A stretch of DNA of 30,500 bases, from IMG/VR virus record IMGVR_UViG_3300046000_008568, positions 1-30,500 of that record. The stretch is one strand, 5' to 3'. The notes under the pieces are model-generated. The model was not told the origin of the DNA. It did not search any database and saw only the letters and a list, made by a program, of their open reading frames with translations. A program made the translations under genes and the position numbers. Within the stretch, counting starts at the first letter, position 1. Each line of letters opens with the position of its first letter. This document shows positions 4,959 through 24,312 of the stretch, in pieces. This DNA comes from a virus. Its lineage: Duplodnaviria; Heunggongvirae; Uroviricota; Caudoviricetes.

Positions 4959-4983
4959 TTAATATTTATAATAAATTATATTA

Positions 4984-6051
4984 ATGAGTGATTTTAACCT
5001 ACATAACTTCTTAACCGAACATAAGTTAACTCGTAATTCGGTATTATTAGAAAATGATAATGCTCCTAGTTTTACTAAACAGGAGATGAGATTTTTTAAA
5101 CCTGAAGAAGCAAAATGGAATGGAGAAATGGATGGACTTACTCCTATTGTAACATATAAAGGACATTCATATAAACTAGATGGACCTACTGATACAAACA
5201 ATATAGAAAGAGAACCAGGAGAATCATCAGCAGCAGGAGATGCATATATGTCTACAGATAAACTACCTGGGGCTTGGTTTAAATTTAGTGCTTATTTTGA
5301 ATATGATGGTGACGGATATGGACTTGAAGATCTACTAGATCTAGAAGAAGTAGATCAAGACCCAGTATGGGAAATAGACCCAGACTCAGAAGACATCCCA
5401 GATGAAGAAGAATTTGACTTTGGTGATGAATTAGATGAACGTGACATAAAGGGTAAAGAAGAAAGAATCGTTAAAGCATTAAAAAAAACAGGAAAATATA
5501 GTAAAGACGATCCTGAACTATATAGATTAGCAGCAGGTATAATGAAAAAACAAAAATCAATGAAAGAAGATATAGATGTAGGCCATCAAGATAATGAACC
5601 ACATATGCTTAAAAGCGATGTTTATAGAACTGCTAAAATGGCAGCTATGTTATATAAGCAACTAGACAAATATGACAATGGTCAAGAAGTTGATTTTCCA
5701 CATTGGTGGCAAGCTAAAATAATTAAAGCATACGATTATTTACAAAGCGCTTATGGATATTTAGATGGTGAAGAAAAAGTAACAGCTATTGATTCAATGA
5801 TGAATGAAGTACAAGGCGAAGAATTGAGTCACGATATTGCTCTTATAGGTGGTACATTAAAAAAAATTGAAACAATGATTGACTTTGGTAGAGATCAAGA
5901 TCAAGACGTTGAAGAAGGATTACAAACTGTACTTAATATTTTAATTGATATTCAACATAAATTAGAAACAACCACTAAAGATGCCTCAGATATGGGTGGT
6001 GCTAGTAAATTTTATCAAATGGAAAATATATTAAAACAAATGGGTAAATAA
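4984..6051 (+). CDS. modular acidic protein with targeting-like leader, candidate internal head protein
   Basis: Begins [23 protein letters not shown]. Modules are delimited by LDE, MKE and MNE, and one is the helical [13 protein letters not shown] module. Confidence 0.7.
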
Positions 6052-6536
6052 TGGAATTTAAAACAAAAAAAGAACTAGAAGATTTTATTCGCGGGCGTGT
6101 ACGTCAACGTTTGAAAAAAACTGATACTGAAGCCTACCAAGGTGATCCTAGCTCCCCTATGAATATAATGTTGGCTCGTTTCCCTGAGTTAAGACAAACA
6201 TTAGAGAAGCTATTATCAATGCAATATAGATTGTTTGTTAGTGATATTGAATGGGTTGCTCCAAAACCAACTACATTTAAAATTCTATTACCTAATAAAC
6301 AATATTTTAATTTAATATGGAATACCGAAGATTTTATTGCTAAGGTATCGGGTATGAAATATGATATGCTTACTCTTCAAGAACGTGAGAGAGCGACTAA
6401 AGCTATATCGGAGTTACTTCAATTTGGCCCTGTACACGCTAATCTATCACCAGAAGAATTAGCTCAACAAGATCTAACACCAGCTAAAGGAGAAGCAGCT
6501 GCTCCACCTCCATTATCTCCAGAAGAATTAAGTTAA
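6051..6536 (+). CDS. hypothetical phage protein
   Basis: 161 aa, TAATG-coupled, with N-terminal KELEDFIRGRVRQRL helix, WVAPKPTTF core and Pro-rich tail. Confidence 0.7.
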   Translation: MEFKTKKELEDFIRGRVRQRLKKTDTEAYQGDPSSPMNIMLARFPELRQTLEKLLSMQYRLFVSDIEWVAPKPTTFKILLPNKQYFNLIWNTEDFIAKVSGMKYDMLTLQERERATKAISELLQFGPVHANLSPEELAQQDLTPAKGEAAAPPPLSPEELS

Positions 6537-6537
6537 A

Positions 6538-6569
6538 TTTGGCTCCCGCAAGGAGCCTTATTACATTTA
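6538..6569 (+). promoter_or_regulatory. Bacteroidota sigma-A-type promoter with a GC hairpin as spacer
   Basis: TTTG (6538-41), 20 nt, TACATTTA (6562-69). The spacer holds GGCTCC-CGCAA-GGAGCC, a probable terminator stem for the upstream operon. Confidence 0.65.
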
Positions 6570-6591
6570 AACCCTAATTTAACATTACGTT

Positions 6592-7371
6592 ATGAACAAA
6601 AAGAAAAGATTATTTTTCGACATTGAAACAAGTCCGAACGTTGGATTTTTCTGGCAATCAGGATACAAACTGAACATTCCCTACACCAATATTATTAAAG
6701 AAAGAGCTATTATCTGTATTTGCTATAAATGGGCAGATGAAGACAAAGTATATTCTTTACAATGGGATAAAAATCAAGATGACAAGGCCATGTTAGAAAA
6801 ATTCATGGTTGTAGCTAACGAAGCTCATGAATTAGTAGGACATAATGGGGATCGATTCGATTTACCTTGGATCAGAACACGTTGTTTATTTCATGGTATT
6901 TCATGTTTTCCAACTTATGCTACTATCGACACATTAAAACATTCTCGTTCTAAATTTAGATTTAATAGTAATCGTTTAGATTATATTGCTAAATACTTAG
7001 GTGTGGGAGAAAAATCTGAAACCGGTGGTTTTGATTTGTGGAGAAATATCGTATTAGATAACGATAAAGACGCAATGAACACAATGGTGGAATATTGTAA
7101 AAATGATGTTGTTATACTTGAAAAAGTATATAATCACATTAAAAACTATGTACCACATAAAACACATTATGGTGCTTTAGAAACAGGAGAAAAAACATGT
7201 TGTCCTGAATGTGGATCAACTGATTTAAGACATTCACAAACTCGTTATTCTGCTGCTGGTACTCCACGTATCCAAATGCAATGTAATGATTGTCACAAAT
7301 ACCATACTGTTGCTAGTAGAACATATGATGCAATAATTGCTAAACAGTTTGAAGGGGAAGAGGAAGAGTAA
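6592..7371 (+). CDS. DEDDy/RNase_H_2-type 3'-5' exonuclease with C-terminal zinc ribbon
   Basis: Exo I FFDIETSP, Exo II GHNGDRFDLPWI, Exo III YCKNDV, then CPECG...CNDC. Confidence 0.85.
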   Translation: MNKKKRLFFDIETSPNVGFFWQSGYKLNIPYTNIIKERAIICICYKWADEDKVYSLQWDKNQDDKAMLEKFMVVANEAHELVGHNGDRFDLPWIRTRCLFHGISCFPTYATIDTLKHSRSKFRFNSNRLDYIAKYLGVGEKSETGGFDLWRNIVLDNDKDAMNTMVEYCKNDVVILEKVYNHIKNYVPHKTHYGALETGEKTCCPECGSTDLRHSQTRYSAAGTPRIQMQCNDCHKYHTVASRTYDAIIAKQFEGEEEE

Positions 7372-7393
7372 ATATTTATTATAAAATATTTGC

Positions 7394-9886
7394 ATGGACA
7401 ATTTTGACTTAAAACGTTTTCTAATTGAAAATAAATTAACTCGCAACTCAATATTATTAAAAGAAAATATAAACATTGATAAACAGGGAAATCTTATATA
7501 TTCCTTAGAAGATGCAGGTATTGATTATAGTGATAGTTCTGAGATATTATTAACATGGGAAATTGATGAGATAAATCCAAATTTAATAAGAAAGTTTGAA
7601 TGGGATGATACTGAAGATACTATTCATACTTATATTGATGTTGATGAACTTAAAGATTTTATTAAAAATCCTGTAGAACTTATTAAAAAATTTGAAGCAC
7701 CTAATGGGTATGTTGTAGTAGATAAACAGGATGCACGTGATTTAATGGAATCATATTATGAAAACTTTGAGGATGAAATTGACCCTGAATTAAATGAAAA
7801 TCACTTAACTCGTAATTCACAATTAATAGATGAAGCTGTCCAAATAGCTACAGACTATCAATTTAGTCCTGAGCAATATGATGTATTAAAAAAGTTTGGA
7901 GCTAAACTTCATCTTAATGGTCGTGAACTTTTACTCCCAGCAAGAATATATGATGATTTAGAAAAACATGTTAGTAAATCTAATTTTAAACAGGAATTTT
8001 ACAAAACAGTAAAAAATATAGGAGGTGAATCTATAATTTCCCAAATATTAACGGCATTAAAATACTCATTATCTTCAGGGAATACAGCTAATGTAGAAGG
8101 TAAAACATATTACGTTTTACAAGGGAAATTAACTAGAAATGGAAATTTTAATTTTCCTAATCCTTCTAGAACTGGTGGAGCTATAGTTAAAACTAAATTT
8201 CAAGATATAGAACCAGAATCAGAACCAGAAGACATAGCAAATATATCTAAAAAATATAATAAATGGGATGTAGATGCTATAGAAAAAGAAGCTGCTAAAT
8301 ATACTAAAGCTTTTGAATTTGAAAAAGCTAACAGAAATGCCTATAGAGCTTATAGAAGAGCAGTTGACCAAGGTTTAATTCAAAACAAATTTGAAATAGA
8401 TATTAAATGGACTAAAGATGCTATAGAACAAGAAGCAGCTAAATATAACAAACCAAGTGAATTTCAAAAAGCAAATCCAAATGCTTATATAGCATACAGA
8501 AAAGCAGTCAACAAAGGTATTATCCCAAATAAATTTGAAGAACCTTTTAAGTGGACTATTGAAAAACTAGAACAAGAAGCAACCAAATATAATACATCTG
8601 GTGAATTTTCTAAAGCAAGTCCAAATGCTTATGTAGCATACAGAGCAGCAGTCAACAAAGGTATTATCCCAAATAAATTTGAAGAAAATGTTAAATGGAC
8701 TAAAGATACCCTAGAACAGGAAGCTGCTAAATACAATACAGCAGGTGAATTTTCTCAATTAAATCCAAATGCTTATGCAGCATACAGAACAGCAGTTAGA
8801 AAAGATATTATTCAAAACAAATTTGGAGAACGAAAGTATGATATAAAGTGGACCAAAGACGCTTTAGAACAAGAAGCATCTAAGCATAATAGACCAATTG
8901 ACTTTCGAAACTCAAATCCAAATGCTTATAGTTTATACCGAATAGCAGTTAGAAACGGCATAATTCAAGACAAATTTAAACAGAGTAAAACTACTTCTGC
9001 TGATCCTTCCACAACAACATCACAATCTACAAATCCAACTCAATCAAGTAATCTATATAATAATCCCTATTTTGGAAATACAACAACAACATTCGATAAA
9101 TTAAAAGAAAATAAAATGCAAGACTTTGACTTAAAACGTTTTCTAGTTGAAAACAAAATGACTAGAAACTCAAGACTACTAAATGAAAATCTTACCTACG
9201 AAACACTCCCACCAGAGGTAAAACAACGTTATGAAAATAATGGTAGAATAGGGGTTGCTTTTGTAAAAGCAAATGGAGCTGTACGACATATGTCATTTAG
9301 TAAAACACTTAAAGCATACCAACCAAGCACAGCTGCTAAAACAGATGCTCAAGCTAATTATCGTCAAAACAATAATTTATGGAGTGGGTATGATGTAAAT
9401 GAATTTATAAAAGCTAAAAAAGAAACGGGAGATGATGCTGCTGCTGCTAAACAAAGTTTTAGAAACTTTAAATTAGAAAATGTATTAGCTTTTTCTGCTG
9501 GTGGTAGAATATTTGATATGCGTGATTTAAATAACATTGTTGAAAGATTTGGTGAAGATGTAGCAGATCAATTAACCAAAACCATGATTCAATCCCTAGA
9601 AAGAGATTCAGCTGCTACTGAACCAACAGTAGATGAATCTCAATTAAATGAAAATATGTCTGATTTAGTAGTTACTTACTATAAAGATAAAGATAGTTAT
9701 GATGAAAAAGGTCTAGCTGATGGTTTTCATGAAGAAGAAGGAAAAAAAGTAAAATTCATTGTTGGGTATGATGATATGGATGAAATAGATGATATAGGAT
9801 ATATCTATTCAAAAAGTGGAAAGGATATTGAAACTGAATACACTGAAGATGATTTAGATAATACTTTTATGAATTCATTACAATAA
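7394..9886 (+). CDS. modular polyprotein-like protein with three leader copies, five helical repeats and a WYL_2/Sm-like domain
   Basis: 830 aa. Leader at 7394, 7790 (partial) and 9116, KW...EA.KY repeats at 8261-8977, and FVKANGAVR...YDV...SFRNFKLENV at about 9240-9490. Confidence 0.75.
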   Translation: MDNFDLKRFLIENKLTRNSILLKENINIDKQGNLIYSLEDAGIDYSDSSEILLTWEIDEINPNLIRKFEWDDTEDTIHTYIDVDELKDFIKNPVELIKKFEAPNGYVVVDKQDARDLMESYYENFEDEIDPELNENHLTRNSQLIDEAVQIATDYQFSPEQYDVLKKFGAKLHLNGRELLLPARIYDDLEKHVSKSNFKQEFYKTVKNIGGESIISQILTALKYSLSSGNTANVEGKTYYVLQGKLTRNGNFNFPNPSRTGGAIVKTKFQDIEPESEPEDIANISKKYNKWDVDAIEKEAAKYTKAFEFEKANRNAYRAYRRAVDQGLIQNKFEIDIKWTKDAIEQEAAKYNKPSEFQKANPNAYIAYRKAVNKGIIPNKFEEPFKWTIEKLEQEATKYNTSGEFSKASPNAYVAYRAAVNKGIIPNKFEENVKWTKDTLEQEAAKYNTAGEFSQLNPNAYAAYRTAVRKDIIQNKFGERKYDIKWTKDALEQEASKHNRPIDFRNSNPNAYSLYRIAVRNGIIQDKFKQSKTTSADPSTTTSQSTNPTQSSNLYNNPYFGNTTTTFDKLKENKMQDFDLKRFLVENKMTRNSRLLNENLTYETLPPEVKQRYENNGRIGVAFVKANGAVRHMSFSKTLKAYQPSTAAKTDAQANYRQNNNLWSGYDVNEFIKAKKETGDDAAAAKQSFRNFKLENVLAFSAGGRIFDMRDLNNIVERFGEDVADQLTKTMIQSLERDSAATEPTVDESQLNENMSDLVVTYYKDKDSYDEKGLADGFHEEEGKKVKFIVGYDDMDEIDDIGYIYSKSGKDIETEYTEDDLDNTFMNSLQ
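8261..8977 (+). repeat. five tandem 144-153 nt (48-51 aa) coding repeats
   Basis: Units start at 8261, 8405, 8549, 8693 and 8846. Consensus KWTKDAxEQEAAKYNxxxEFxKANPNAYxAYRxAVxKGIIxNKF. Confidence 0.95.
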
Positions 9887-9944: not shown

Positions 9945-9983
9945 AGAGATGTGGCCTCAGTTTTTGAGACCACATCTTTTTTT
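9945..9983 (+). terminator. intrinsic terminator
   Basis: AGAGATGTGGCCTCA / TGAGACCACATCTTT stem (one mismatch, one G-U) running into T7. Confidence 0.8.
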
Positions 9984-9993
9984 CGTATATTTA
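9963..9993 (+). promoter_or_regulatory. Bacteroidota sigma-A-type promoter overlapping the terminator
   Basis: TTTG (9963-66), 19 nt, TATATTTA (9986-93), ending 20 nt before ATG 10014. Confidence 0.7.
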
Positions 9994-10013
9994 ACAGTTC
10001 AAAAATTATAAAC

Positions 10014-11342
10014 ATGAGTAAAAAAATAGTAATCGTTGGAGCCGGTGTAGCAGGTATTAATGCTGCTACAAAATTAGTAGATAATGGATATCCGGGTGAA
10101 TTAATTACCATTATTGATATGGGGAAAGATCCCCATAAACGATTACCAAGTGAAGTAATGACTGGTATGTTAGGTGCTGGTGGTTGGTCTGATGGTAAAT
10201 TAACATACCATACAGCCATTGGAGGTCAATTATCTAAGTACTGTGGTGAAGACAAAGCTATGGAGTTAATGGATCAAGTTATTACTAACTTTAAACGTTT
10301 TCACCCTAAACCTGAAGAAGTACAGTGTTCAAATCCTGTTGCTGAACCTGATTTTATTAAACCCCAATTTGGTTTACGTTTATTTCCTGTATGGCACGTT
10401 GGAACTGATTATCTATCTGAAATAGCTAAAAATTGGTATGAGTATTTAGTTGATAATGGAGTTAAATTTATTTGGGAAACTAAGGTAACCAATATTAATT
10501 TTGATGGAAATGCCTTGTTGTATGTAGATGATAATAATGGACCCGGGAATTCTGAATTAAAACCATTTTCATATGATGAACTTATTTTTGGTGTAGGTAA
10601 ATCAGGTATTGACTTTGGTAAAAAACTAGCCGAACAATATGATCTACCAACTGAACCAAAATCAGTACAAATTGGTGTTCGTTTTGAAGCACCACAAAAA
10701 CACTTCCAAAAATTAATCGATGTGTCCTATGACTTTAAGTTATATAGAAAATTTGATGATAAAGGAGTATCATTACGTTCATTCTGTACTAACAATAATG
10801 CAGCATACGTTGCAGTAGAAGAAACATACGGAAACTACTCATACAACGGCCATGCTAAGAAAGATGAGAAGTATAGAAACGATATGACTAACTTTGGTAT
10901 TATAATGGAAGTAAACGGAATCGAAGATCCATTTACTTGGAGTAGAAATTTAGTTAAAACATTACAAATTGGTAATAAAGGGTTATATTATTCTCCCTCT
11001 AGAGTACCTTCACTAACATCAGAAGGTAAATTCGTAGATGCAACTCAAATAAATGATGCTGTAATGCATGAAGTAAGAGAGGCATTTGAAGGTTATTTCA
11101 GTTACATTGATAGTTTTATTGATGGAATGAAAAAAATCTTCCCAACATTAAAAGACGATTGGGGTATGTACATACCTGAAGTAAAATATCTATCTCCTGA
11201 GCCACTTGTTGATTATACCAATTTAGCCCTGACCAAGTATCCTAACGTACATTTCGTTGGTGATGCACTTTCCGCTAGAGGTATAACAGTAAGTGGTGCA
11301 CAAGGAATCTACGTTGCCGAAGATATTTTGAAACATCAATAA
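10014..11342 (+). CDS. FAD/NAD(P)-dependent oxidoreductase (COG2509-like)
   Basis: Rossmann IVIVGAGVAG, GAGGWSDGKL, IGVRFE, RSFCTN, NGH, NFG and FVGD..RGI motifs. Start moved from GTG 9951, which lies in the terminator, to ATG 10014. Confidence 0.85.
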   Translation: MSKKIVIVGAGVAGINAATKLVDNGYPGELITIIDMGKDPHKRLPSEVMTGMLGAGGWSDGKLTYHTAIGGQLSKYCGEDKAMELMDQVITNFKRFHPKPEEVQCSNPVAEPDFIKPQFGLRLFPVWHVGTDYLSEIAKNWYEYLVDNGVKFIWETKVTNINFDGNALLYVDDNNGPGNSELKPFSYDELIFGVGKSGIDFGKKLAEQYDLPTEPKSVQIGVRFEAPQKHFQKLIDVSYDFKLYRKFDDKGVSLRSFCTNNNAAYVAVEETYGNYSYNGHAKKDEKYRNDMTNFGIIMEVNGIEDPFTWSRNLVKTLQIGNKGLYYSPSRVPSLTSEGKFVDATQINDAVMHEVREAFEGYFSYIDSFIDGMKKIFPTLKDDWGMYIPEVKYLSPEPLVDYTNLALTKYPNVHFVGDALSARGITVSGAQGIYVAEDILKHQ

Positions 11343-19854: not shown

Positions 19855-20496
19855 ATGAGCAAACAACTATTAATAGAACGTATTTCCAATTTTACTTTAA
19901 CGCCCCAACTATTACAAGAGTCAGTTAGAGTAAATAAAGGCCGTCTTATTGTTGAAGGAGTAGTACAACGTGCTAATGCTGAAAACGGTAATAGACGTGT
20001 TTATCCTGAGGATACTTTAAGAAGAGAAGTACAGAAATATAAAGACACATATATTAAGGAAAATAGAGCATTAGGTGAATTAGATCATCCTGAATCTCCA
20101 ATTATCAATTTAAAAAATGTATGTCATAATATATTAGATTTATGGTGGCAAGGTGATGATGTAATGGGTAAAATTGAAATATTACCTACACCATCTGGAA
20201 ACATATTAAAAGAATTACTTTTAGCAGGTATTACTGTTGGTATTTCTTCTCGTGCTATGGGGTCTGTAAAACAAATTGGTGAAACAGTTGAAGTACAAGA
20301 CGATTTAGATATCGTATGTTGGGATTTTGTTTCAACACCATCAACACAAGGTGCGTTTATGGAAATTGTAAATGAATCTCTTAATCATAATGCACCAAAA
20401 CAACAACCACAATTGCAAAAAATTAACGAATTAATAACAGATATTCTTTGCAACAGAGCTGGATTTTGCTCTTGCGATTTACCAAATACCAAATAA
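19855..20496 (+). CDS. prohead core protease (T4 gp21-like)
   Basis: NGNRRVYP, ALGELDHP (catalytic His), GISSRAMGS (catalytic Ser) and WDFVSTPST. Confidence 0.95.
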   Translation: MSKQLLIERISNFTLTPQLLQESVRVNKGRLIVEGVVQRANAENGNRRVYPEDTLRREVQKYKDTYIKENRALGELDHPESPIINLKNVCHNILDLWWQGDDVMGKIEILPTPSGNILKELLLAGITVGISSRAMGSVKQIGETVEVQDDLDIVCWDFVSTPSTQGAFMEIVNESLNHNAPKQQPQLQKINELITDILCNRAGFCSCDLPNTK

Positions 20497-21464: not shown

Positions 21465-22634
21465 ATGAAAGACACAAAAGCCCTTTTAAAGGAAGCTATT
21501 GCTGATGCTAAAGCCGTTCGTGAAACCGCTCTTACACAAGCAAAACTTGCTCTTGAAGAAGCCTTCGCTCCACGTCTACAGTCAATGTTCTCTGCTCGAT
21601 TAAGAGAAGAATATGAAGCTGAAGGTCAAATGGATGAAGAATTCGACGAAAACATGATGAATGATATCCCTATGGAGGGACATGACCAAGACAACTCTAT
21701 AGACGAAATCGACCTTGACGAAATTCTTGCAGAATTAGAAAATGAATTAAACGAAGCAAAAGACGAAGACGAAGAAGAAATGATCGACGCTGAAGAAGAT
21801 GCTGAAGACATTGAAGATGATGCTAAAGAAGACGAAGAAGAGGAAAAAGAAGTTAAAGACTTATCTATGGATGAGTTAGAAAGTTTAATTAAAGACATCA
21901 TCTCTCAGGAAACTGGAGGTGCTGGTGACGGAGAAGGCTACGAAGACGAAGCTGAAGTTGACGCTATGGATATGGCTGGTGATGCAGAAATAGCTGCAGA
22001 CGAGGAAGACATAAATTTAGAAGAAGACTTAGACGACATCTTAGCTGAGTTATTAGGTGAAAAAAGAGAAAGCCGTGCTGAAAGATCTAAAGTAGACAAA
22101 TATGAATACGAAAAAGGTAAAAAAGCAGGTGAATTAGACGAACGTAAAAAACAAGGCTACGACGATCGTGAAGACGAAAGAGAAGCAGGAAAACATGGTA
22201 AAATAGGTTCAAAAGATCTTAATACTACTAAAGCCCGCAGAGATGATGCCGGATTTGAGAAAAGAATGAATGAAGAATTAGCATTAGCTTTAGAAGCTGT
22301 TAAAACTCTTCGTACTGAACTTAATGAAGTTAATCTATTAAACGCTAAGTTACTTTACGTTAATAAAATCTTTAACGCTAAAAACTTAAACGAGTCACAA
22401 AAATTAAAAGTTGTGAAAGCATTTGACAAAGCAGAATCTGCTAAAGAAGCTAAATTAGTATATGAGTCACTTTCAGAAGCATTCGTTGCTCCTACTAAAG
22501 GTAAAACTCAATTGAAAGAATCATTAGGATTCGCTTCTAAAGCTGCAGGTATGGCTCCTAGAAAACTAATCGTTGAAAACAACGAATGGATAACTAGAAT
22601 GCAAAAATTAGCAAACATAAACCAAACAAATTAA
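21465..22634 (+). CDS. prohead scaffold/core protein (T4 gp22 analogue)
   Basis: Very acidic, helical, LLKEAIADAKAVR N-terminus, EVNLLNAKLLY coiled coil and RMQKLANI C-terminus. Directly upstream of the MCP. Confidence 0.85.
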   Translation: MKDTKALLKEAIADAKAVRETALTQAKLALEEAFAPRLQSMFSARLREEYEAEGQMDEEFDENMMNDIPMEGHDQDNSIDEIDLDEILAELENELNEAKDEDEEEMIDAEEDAEDIEDDAKEDEEEEKEVKDLSMDELESLIKDIISQETGGAGDGEGYEDEAEVDAMDMAGDAEIAADEEDINLEEDLDDILAELLGEKRESRAERSKVDKYEYEKGKKAGELDERKKQGYDDREDEREAGKHGKIGSKDLNTTKARRDDAGFEKRMNEELALALEAVKTLRTELNEVNLLNAKLLYVNKIFNAKNLNESQKLKVVKAFDKAESAKEAKLVYESLSEAFVAPTKGKTQLKESLGFASKAAGMAPRKLIVENNEWITRMQKLANINQTN

Positions 22635-22644
22635 AATTAAAAAA

Positions 22645-24312
22645 ATGGACAATTTAAACATGCTCTTAGAAGGAGCAAATCCATGGAAAAGCCAACAAGC
22701 AGAAGCAGCAAGAGTTGCTACTAAATGGCAAAAAAGTGGACTTCTTGAAGGAATCAGTAACCAAGTTGAGAAAAACAACATGGCTGTTATCCTTGAAAAC
22801 CAGGCAAAACAGTTAGTAGTTGAAACTAACGTTACTTCTGGTACAAACTCAATGTTAGGTGGTACTGGTGAAAACTGGGCTGGTATTGCATTGCCTTTAG
22901 TACGTAGAGTATTCGCTGAAATCGTAGCTAAAGAATTCGTATCTGTACAACCAATGGCTATGCCTTCTGGTCTTGTATTTTATCTAGATTTCCAATACGG
23001 AAATAATAAAACTCCGTTCCAACAAAATAAATCACTTTACGGTTCATTAGCTGATGTTCAAGCTACAAATGCTGATATCTCTAACGTTAACCCAACAGGT
23101 GGTCTTTACGGACAAGGTAGATATGGTTACTCAATGAACCAATTCTCACAATCTATAGCTTATTCTGCATCTTTAGTAAATTCATTAAGCCAAGTTAACT
23201 GGGATTCTCGTTACGAGTCTTCTACTGGGTCATTATATGTAATTAACTTCTCAGCAGCCTCAGCTTCTTTACTTACAAATGCTGACTTCTTAGCTGCAGC
23301 TGCATTTATTCCAAGTAGCTCTTTGATCAATGGATTAAACGTATTACAACAGTTTACTAACTACGTAAGTAGCTCATCAACTGCACAATTAACATTTGTT
23401 ACAACAGCTGCTTTAACGGGTGCTAATTCATCTGGTTCTTGTACAGTTTACTTTGAAAAACAAACTACTCCTGCATTAAGAGGTGATTTTGAAGCTGATA
23501 ATACTGGAATCGCTATTCCTAACTCATTGAGTGAAACTCAAATCGTTATTCCAACCGTTAACATCCAAATGAAATCAGATGCTATCGTTGCGAAAACTCG
23601 TAAATTGAAAGCACAATGGACTCCTGAGTTAGCTCAAGATTTGAATGCTTACCAAAACATCGATGCTGAAGCTGAATTAACTGGATTGTTATCTCAATAC
23701 ATCGCTATGGAGATTGACTTAGAAATCTTAGGTATGTTGACTGAAGAAGCAGCTACTACAGGATACTGGTCAGCAGAAAACAATAAAGTTTGGAATGGTT
23801 CAACATTCGTTCAAACTTCAACTACAACTGGTGGTTTCTATAACACACAAGGTGGTTGGTTCGCAACTTTAGGTACAGTATTACAATCAGTATCTAACAA
23901 AATCTTGCAAAAAACTCTTAGAGGTCAAGCTAACTTCTTGGTAATTTCTCCAGCAGTAGCTACTATCATGCAGTCTATCCCAGGATATGCTTCTGATGCA
24001 GGTGCTGAATTGGATAAAGTATTCAACTTTGGTAGCCAAAAAATTGGTTCTCTAAACTCTCGTTACAAAGTATATGTAAATCCTTACTTTAGTGATAACG
24101 TAATCCTTATGGGTTATAAAGGTGCTCAATTCTTGGAATCAGGTGCTGTTTATGCTCCATACGTTCCGTTGTTAATGACTCCACTTGTGTACGATCCTGA
24201 AACTTTCACACCAAGAAAAGGTATCATGACTCGTTACGCTAAGAAAATGGTACGTCCTGAATTCTACGGTAAAGTATTCGTTAATGGTTTAAATGCCTTA
24301 GGTATTAACTAA
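22645..24312 (+). CDS. major capsid protein (T4 gp23-like)
   Basis: PLVRRVF, VSVQPM..PSGLVFYL, KTRKLKAQWTPELAQDL, EIDLEIL, YAPYVPL and PRKGIMTRY motifs, with high-expression codon bias (TTC, AAC, ATC, TAC, CGT). Confidence 0.97.
   Translation: MDNLNMLLEGANPWKSQQAEAARVATKWQKSGLLEGISNQVEKNNMAVILENQAKQLVVETNVTSGTNSMLGGTGENWAGIALPLVRRVFAEIVAKEFVSVQPMAMPSGLVFYLDFQYGNNKTPFQQNKSLYGSLADVQATNADISNVNPTGGLYGQGRYGYSMNQFSQSIAYSASLVNSLSQVNWDSRYESSTGSLYVINFSAASASLLTNADFLAAAAFIPSSSLINGLNVLQQFTNYVSSSSTAQLTFVTTAALTGANSSGSCTVYFEKQTTPALRGDFEADNTGIAIPNSLSETQIVIPTVNIQMKSDAIVAKTRKLKAQWTPELAQDLNAYQNIDAEAELTGLLSQYIAMEIDLEILGMLTEEAATTGYWSAENNKVWNGSTFVQTSTTTGGFYNTQGGWFATLGTVLQSVSNKILQKTLRGQANFLVISPAVATIMQSIPGYASDAGAELDKVFNFGSQKIGSLNSRYKVYVNPYFSDNVILMGYKGAQFLESGAVYAPYVPLLMTPLVYDPETFTPRKGIMTRYAKKMVRPEFYGKVFVNGLNALGIN

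Follow-up and report, generated by a model that had tools for sequence, protein, structure and literature searches.

The 30,500-nucleotide stretch analyzed here, called the window below, covers the first 30.5 kb of an IMG/VR virus record (IMGVR_UViG_3300046000_008568) with a length of 165,861 bp. GC content is ~32%, and nearly all genes lie on the + strand. Among cultured phages, its nearest relative is vB_FspM_immuto of Flavobacterium (genus Immutovirus, 160 kb), referred to here as immuto. Two open reading frames (ORFs) in the window, ORF A and ORF B, begin with a recurring peptide of 23 to 25 residues whose consensus is M-x-x-F-D-L-K-x-F-L-x-E-N-K-L-T-R-N-S-x-L-L-x-E. We refer to this peptide as the tag, and consider whether it might direct proteins to the phage head in the manner of the capsid-targeting sequence (CTS) of phage T4.

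Five copies of the tag occur in three genes of the genome. ORF A carries one and ORF B three, and the fifth is outside the window, at the N-terminus of the 160-amino-acid ORF C (genome positions 139010 to 139492). The four copies within the window, two at the N-termini of ORFs A and B and two inside B, are those listed by a first-pass annotation made from the letters of the window. As that annotation also said, each of these four copies ends in a hydrophobic residue, any residue and glutamate (LLE, LKE, IDE or LNE) and is then followed by differing sequence. The exact 21-mer that it reported, TTTGACTTAAAACGTTTTCTA, is found at positions 7403 and 9125 but at no other place in the window; the count expected from 100 shuffles is 0. 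A profile scan of all + strand ORFs of at least 50 amino acids in the genome yields no further significant copy, and detects neither other copies nor weak relatives of the tag in the head-core proteins. One of the internal copies in ORF B is half decayed: its F-D-L-K-x-F-L half is gone (it now reads NFEDEIDPEL), and its L-T-R-N-S-x-L-I-D-E half and terminal site are kept, with the LNENHLTRNS part beginning at position 7790. The module that follows this decayed copy has a full N-terminal tag in a relative (P0005).

A profile built from the five copies retrieves 223 proteins from a word-indexed collection, and 842 clusters (E<=1e-3) among 1.84 billion metagenomic representatives. Tag loci from IMG/VR number 23. 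When the tag is compared by tblastn with 50,697 records of cultured phages (E up to 1), only four records match, all of them immuto (Immutovirus). The immuto genome has four tag genes, of which gp077 and gp076 are directly upstream of terminase, gp003 adjoins the gene for single-stranded DNA-binding protein (SSB), and gp092 adjoins a primase gene. A bacterial or prophage origin was considered and rejected, as the pattern used had 0 matches in 185,579 prokaryote genomes. Pfam and PHROG scans give no match over the tag region in ORFs A, B and C or in 86 representative proteins, and a literature search found no description of this peptide.

Conserved features of the tag were determined from 250 retrieved proteins containing 339 copies. 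Most copies (246) start at Met1; the other 93 are internal, and 12 of these are at the very C-terminus. Positions L10, E12, N13 and T16 are invariant among the retrieved copies, and F4, F9, K14, N18 and E24 are nearly so. The sequence pattern [LIVM]-x-Glu ends 18 to 20 residues past the anchor Phe in 320 of 339 copies (94%). Internal copies are usually bracketed by a further site: a second [LIVM]-x-E lies within 12 residues upstream in 90% of the 93, compared with 29% at random positions in the same proteins. The upstream sites belong to 61 different strings at the junctions, among them PTLKENK-M, FDKLKENK-M, VEALQE-G, KAELKE-G and LAENTNT-M, and the junctions PT[LI][KN]ENK and FDKLKENK are kept before internal tags that follow three different upstream modules. 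A copy at the C-terminus has no downstream sequence to be released, and only 5 of the 12 such copies keep the trailing site, versus 317 of the 327 others (Fisher p 1.4e-7). Because of this bracketing, the loss of sites in C-terminal copies and the half-decayed copy in ORF B, the tag appears to behave as two parts: one half is conserved and resembles a docking element, and the other holds a Glu site whose retention depends on whether there is something to separate.

Sequences joined to the tag are highly diverse. Cutting the 250 proteins at their tags gives 324 modules, which fall into at least 94 families that are distinct by BLAST. The same family may provide a stand-alone tagged gene in one case and the second or third module of a fused protein in another. 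Matches to known families lie in the modules only, and scans of the 86 representatives find little: WYL_2 (in one family), PHROGs whose function is unknown, among them phrog_20046 and phrog_2267, and one DVNP. The last is a metagenomic protein bearing the tag (alignment A7 set) that matches DVNP, a viral and dinoflagellate DNA-binding nucleoprotein (PF19060, E 4.6e-14). Judged by this family match, cargo of the DVNP type would fit packaging with DNA.

The locus of ORF B illustrates how these modules are exchanged. In related phages, the corresponding slot lies between a conserved exonuclease (89 to 97% amino acid identity) and an oxidoreductase (75 to 90%), and holds one gene of 147, 215, 277, 385, 392, 550 or 830 amino acids, or, in one relative, tandem genes of 285 and 215 amino acids. 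Every gene in this slot begins with the tag and contains one to three tags, and the tag is the exact point at which modules are swapped, fused and split among the related phages. Tag genes also occur elsewhere: one immediately follows the protease gene (L020), others precede the baseplate region (L023, L025 and ORF C of this genome), and others lie in the replication module between a recombinase and a 5'-3' exonuclease (L011, L018). The first-pass annotation envisaged a portable tag on differing domains, encoded in the head region. Portability is supported by the 842 clusters and by the number of module families, but placement near the head genes is only partly borne out, because some tag genes of relatives are in replication modules.

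In ORF A, the sequence behind the tag has no Pfam or PHROG match. Its family has 39 metagenomic members that differ by cassette-like insertions and deletions, and by one relocated module. One ORF A module (beginning DVGHQD; positions 5573 to 5808) has 85% DNA identity to a stretch inside immuto gp079, which is a large protein encoded upstream of the immuto tag genes. Modules therefore also move between a tagged protein and a giant neighboring protein. ORF B consists of three modules. The second contains five tandem 48-amino-acid helical repeats (positions 8238 to 8980, with a 144-nucleotide period and repeat families D1 and D2), and the module with these repeats is found again in many relatives that bear the tag. 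The third module is a stand-alone tagged gene in many relatives, whose sequences are entirely different from a conserved Q-[LI]-[ND]-E site (QLNE or QIDE) onward.

According to Pfam and PHROG scans, the window also encodes a T4-type head module (Table 1). The first-pass annotation had proposed the protease at position 19855 as the enzyme that cuts the tag. This gene indeed belongs to the S77 family that includes T4 gp21, and it accompanies a T4-type portal and capsid protein in this genome and in every complete relative. As a sequence pattern, the hydrophobic-x-Glu end of the tag agrees with the cleavage motif of this family (a hydrophobic or small residue, any residue and Glu). Among five long tag-bearing contigs that were tested, the protease is present in all three that are not short fragments, as well as in immuto; T4-type portal and capsid genes are likewise found in relatives. 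The scaffold-like protein was assigned from its composition and its place between the protease and capsid genes. It has homologues in relatives, and there is no direct tie between it and the tag. In the capsid protein, a V-V-E at positions 22816 to 22824 is a probable cut site, judging from the N-terminal sequence of T4 gp23. A more distant relative (L029:1316-7331) has its large terminase in two ORFs of 284 and 385 amino acids, with ~740 nucleotides between them, and a portal ORF of 1081 amino acids compared with 620.

Table 1. Positions of the tag genes, their modules, promoter-like motifs, head genes and possible second-tag ORFs (window coordinates unless a genome or locus is named)
Feature	Position	Strand	Description
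ATATTTAT before ORF A	4962..4969	+	22 nt upstream of start
ORF A	4984-6051	+	355 aa
Tag copy 1	4984..5052	+	23 aa, ends LLE; N-terminus of ORF A; profile score 47 bits
ORF A, putative cargo	5053..6051	+	Acidic, pI 4.4; beta domain (residues ~30-127) and low-confidence helical modules
ATATTTAT before ORF B	7372..7379	+	22 nt upstream of start; kept in same slot of relatives
ORF B	7394-9886	+	830 aa
Tag copy 2	7394..7465	+	24 aa, ends LKE; N-terminus of ORF B; 50 bits
B module 1	7466..7762	+	99 aa, pI 4.1; no family match
Decayed internal tag of ORF B	7763..7834	+	B residues 124-147; 39 bits
B module 2	7835..9094	+	420 aa, basic, pI 9.3; Ser/Thr-rich tail; phrog_20046 E 7e-23
Junction DKLKENK	9095..9115	+	Extra hydrophobic-x-E site (LKE) directly before internal tag
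Tag copy 3	9116..9187	+	24 aa, B residues 575-598; Met start, ends LNE; 51.5 bits; shares 21-mer with copy 2
B module 3	9188..9886	+	232 aa, pI 4.6; conserved ~150-aa domain (phrog_2267), Q-L-N-E site at 9641-9652, hypervariable tail
Large terminase (TerL)	starts 13114		
Portal	starts 14714		Portal_T4, E 8e-68
Prohead protease	19855..20496	+	Presumed tag-removing enzyme; Pfam Peptidase_S77 E 2.4e-28; phrog_207 head maturation protease E 4e-57
Acidic scaffold-like protein	21465..22634	+	Candidate docking partner; 17.7% Glu, 21 hydrophobic-x-E sites
Major capsid protein	22645..24312	+	gp23 family, N-terminal propeptide; Pfam Gp23 E 2.8e-79, domain from residue 76
Possible second-tag ORFs	genome 139779-140075 (L001:5780-6076); L007:11676-12140; L002:25061-25456; L013:12304-12711; L021:1561-1881		
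aa, amino acids; nt, nucleotides; pI, isoelectric point.

The tag genes share an upstream sequence with structural genes. The motif ATATTTAT occurs 48 times in the forward and 9 times in the reverse orientation in the genome, at window positions 362 to 27903 and beyond. These occurrences cluster in two structural regions, before TerL, portal, tail and baseplate genes, and are scarce in the replication region. The distance to the start codon is 12 to 112 nucleotides for structural genes, and 22, 22 and 37 nucleotides for tag genes A, B and C. In relatives, TATTTAT is found 17 to 31 nucleotides upstream of most tag genes that lead a transcription unit, including those in the replication module. 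From its distribution, ATATTTAT is a candidate late promoter element.

Conservation of the tag could in principle reflect a DNA or RNA element instead of a peptide. In that case, a mobile cassette would have the repeat as its 5' end, made up of a promoter, an A-rich region around the translation start and ~70 nucleotides of coding sequence. The repeat would serve as a homology patch for recombination or as a translation enhancer, with the peptide being incidental. Cassettes with their own promoter-like motif do move between genome modules, and the 21-nucleotide identity within ORF B uses rare codons (GAC, CGT and CTA). T4-type phages also provide a precedent in PeSL cassettes, which are intergenic DNA elements, in which an early promoter is combined with a stem-loop, and whose conserved patches mediate shuffling (PMC2839356, PMC4122927). 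As in PeSL cassettes, a conserved patch here lies 5' of variable genes in hyperplastic regions, and modules are shuffled between close relatives. The conserved unit, however, is a translated peptide whose synonymous sites vary freely. Nearly every codon position varies synonymously among 35 distinct tag DNAs and the peptide is kept; for example, Arg is encoded by AGA, CGC, CGT or CGA, Asn by AAC or AAT (18:17), and Ser by TCT or TCA (16:16). At the DNA level, the copies in ORF A and ORF B share no more than 67% identity. This free variation indicates that selection acts on the peptide, and a DNA-level function was rejected as the main constraint. Moreover, 35 of the 93 internal copies lack Met and 12 copies are C-terminal, so these cannot be translation starts. 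We regard an explanation at the level of DNA or RNA as highly improbable. The first-pass annotation had also proposed that the DNA repeat could be a handle for recombination, a suggestion that fares poorly given that only the 21-nucleotide patch in ORF B is identical. The rare codons in this patch fit recent conversion or common descent, and at best it would offer marginal homology for exchange. Any recombination at the tag may be a by-product of shared sequence.

The CTS of T4 offers the closest comparison for a peptide of this kind. In T4, the internal proteins IPI-III and Alt are directed to the scaffold core by N-terminal propeptides of 10 to 19 residues, which gp21 then removes (PMC9026906, PMC5694885, PMC3012670). 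The N-terminal part of the CTS targets the protein, and residues 8 to 10 direct processing (PMC9026906). Alt and gp21 have C-terminal propeptides as well (PMC9026906, PMC5694885, PMC3012670). Relatives of T4 differ in the internal proteins that they have, and the CTS alone is kept (PMC3012670, PMC9026906). Like the CTS, the tag is a short N-terminal peptide common to unrelated proteins, and has a putative targeting half followed by a processing site that ends in Glu. Both phages encode a protease of the gp21 family together with a T4-type portal and capsid protein, and in both, variable cargo resides in plastic loci and the targeting peptide is conserved. By analogy, the two-part layout of the tag is a feature-by-feature match to the logic of the CTS, and the hypervariable slot of ORF B parallels the variable set of T4 internal proteins.

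There are also clear differences. The tag is longer than the CTS (23 to 25 versus 10 to 19 residues), occurs between the modules of long proteins and at C-termini in addition to N-termini, and is joined to mostly acidic cargo. CTS function has been demonstrated, reportedly by Mullaney and Black in 1996 according to later reviews (PMC9026906, PMC5694885, PMC3012670), whereas the tag is known from sequence alone. Our tblastn comparison reveals no sequence similarity between the tag and the CTS, and we therefore classify the tag as at most a functional analogue, and not as a homologue.

Other systems share some of these properties. The gp21-like proteases of the giant phages phiKZ, 201phi2-1 and SPN3US cut at (A/S/G)-x-Glu (PMC10052503, PMC5694885). 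Giant-phage propeptides contain several sites each and are cut to small fragments, and some are N-terminal and only 20 to 24 residues long (PMC10052503). Proteases of this family cut after x-X-Glu and remove C-terminal as well as N-terminal propeptides (PMC10052503, PMC9026906). The protease of the giant phages is of the same family as the one encoded here, and paralogous ejection proteins in giant phages share conserved N-termini. However, giant-phage propeptides are mostly 100 to 250 residues long and protein-specific, in contrast to one portable tag on ~100 module families. A more distant parallel can be drawn from a cellular compartment.

Encapsulin cargo-loading peptides are short, conserved N- or C-terminal peptides that address diverse cargo to the inside of an HK97-fold shell. 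This resemblance is a functional analogy only, since encapsulins are not viruses, their loading peptides are not removed by a protease, and these peptides have no sequence relation to the tag. A logic like that of the leaders of ribosomally synthesized and post-translationally modified peptides would involve a modifying enzyme that is consistently encoded along with the tag genes. The only candidate examined is the FAD-dependent oxidoreductase beside ORF B (positions 9951 to 11342), which is 75 to 90% identical at the amino acid level in close relatives. It is found neither in immuto nor in the complete tag-bearing genome G001, and was rejected as an obligate partner.

These comparisons lead us to favor the interpretation that the tag is a CTS-like, protease-removable signal for capsid loading, and that genes such as ORF B encode polyproteins jointed at protease sites. 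Judging from the sequence patterns, we consider the case for this interpretation to be evenly balanced. Under this proposal, tag genes would be transcribed along with the structural genes, and the first half of the tag (F-D-L-K-x-F-L) would dock each protein on the assembling scaffold core or inner shell. Once the shell is closed, the S77 protease would cut after Glu at the sites that end each tag, and at the extra sites before internal tags. In this way a single protein would shed its tag, and one with several modules, as in the case of B, would split into separate modules. Tag fragments would then exit the head, and the modules would remain inside or act as auxiliary core material. Since any module behind a tag would be loaded, tag-gene loci would evolve as plug-in slots. 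Docking, cutting, presence in virions and injection into the host are all steps that we infer. In an extended version, T4-like phages that infect Flavobacteria would load such modules, tagged singly or strung into polyproteins, free them with the S77 protease and inject them together with the phage DNA, as a rapidly evolving arsenal of, for example, acidic DNA mimics or other anti-defense proteins. This version is plausible but less probable than not.

Several observations weigh against capsid loading. Two of the four immuto tag genes adjoin the SSB and primase genes. Of the tagged modules, 76% are acidic, with a median isoelectric point of 4.6 compared with 5.4 for the genome, and the internal proteins of T4 are basic. 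Common descent confounds the co-occurrence of tag and protease, since every carrier is a member of a single phage lineage. One complete relative has a single tag gene, which suggests that the system is accessory. The statistics on Glu sites are drawn from related sequences and from linkers rich in Glu and Lys, and so are not fully independent. The tag is twice the length of its T4 counterpart and is conserved far beyond the needs of a loose amphipathic signal, which may be a sign of a specific enzyme or of some other partner. Finally, our literature search found no virion proteome for Immutovirus.

Predicted structures bear on whether the tag belongs to a folded domain, which the first-pass annotation named as an outcome that would count against its proposal. 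In an AlphaFold2 model of ORF A (mean predicted local distance difference test score, pLDDT, of 48 for the whole model), residues 1 to 25 have a pLDDT of ~37, compared with 75 to 86 for the adjoining beta domain (residues 30 to 127), and the tag forms two short helices at residues ~6 to 12 and 17 to 22. In B module 3 (mean pLDDT 49), only the helix at residues 6 to 12 is clear, and residues 16 to 25 are modeled with low confidence. A wide structural search with the ORF A model returns only generic helical hairpins at Z<=7. The models thus do not place the tag in a fold, although this is weak evidence. Prediction of a complex between the tag (35 amino acids, 19-row alignment) and the scaffold-like protein (389 amino acids, 4-row alignment) gave a score of 0.00, which argues neither for nor against binding.

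If the tag does not load capsids, it might be a docking motif for a hub of the phage or host that is unrelated to the capsid, such as the replisome, a clamp, a transcription factor or a chaperone, or might be recognized as a leader by a modifying enzyme. Linear motifs that bind hubs are expected at N-termini, in linkers and at C-termini, which is where tag copies are found, and the strong conservation over ~20 residues, the modeled flexibility of the tag and the presence of some tag genes in replication modules are all consistent with this idea. It does not predict the bracketing of tags by hydrophobic-x-Glu sites and the loss of these sites in C-terminal copies, nor does it predict that a motif resembling the promoters of structural genes is carried even into replication modules. 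With the oxidoreductase discounted as its sole neighboring enzyme candidate, this idea also names no partner, and we consider it unlikely. Somewhat less probable again is that the peptide is an intrinsic mini-domain or propeptide, acting as a helper of oligomerization or folding or as an inhibitory prosegment of proteins that are not packaged. The short helices in the models (two in ORF A and one clear helix in B module 3) could belong to such a mini-domain, and the conserved Glu sites could serve activation by the S77 protease or another Glu-specific enzyme. However, at least 94 unrelated modules would all need the same helper, and the decayed and C-terminal copies indicate that modules tolerate the loss or displacement of the tag. 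In addition, the only Glu-specific protease family detected acts inside proheads, as is established for gp21 (PMC5694885). A mini-domain, like a DNA element, fits the data less well.

A second portable tag may exist in this lineage. Scaffold proteins of the lineage all end in ..TR[MW]Q[KQ]LA[GN]I (window positions 22580 to 22634), and several small ORFs, often adjoining tag genes, begin with MKKQ[FI][IL][TS]E..[RK][LM]Q[KQF]LAGI[IL][TN]E, which has a hydrophobic-x-Glu end. Based on this resemblance, the second tag may mimic the tail of the scaffold and so address proteins to the capsid. A complete and more distant relative (L047; G001:C1:36000-55000) has no A or B genes upstream of terminase, and many of its small proteins begin with another recurring amphipathic pattern (such as ..L.DILKEI.. 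or ..LLEILKEA..).

A cultured carrier and its host are available, namely phage immuto on Flavobacterium sp. LMO8, and whether the tag loads proteins into capsids is therefore directly testable. If it does, the CTS principle of T4 would extend to a distant and environmentally common lineage of Bacteroidota phages, in a new format in which the signal is longer, is located at either end of a protein or between modules, and joins polyproteins at protease sites. The tag would then be a transplantable packaging signal for engineering phages of Flavobacterium and other Bacteroidota. Hundreds of "dark" metagenomic protein families would gain an address, the interior of the virion, and would constitute a pool of candidate injected effectors.

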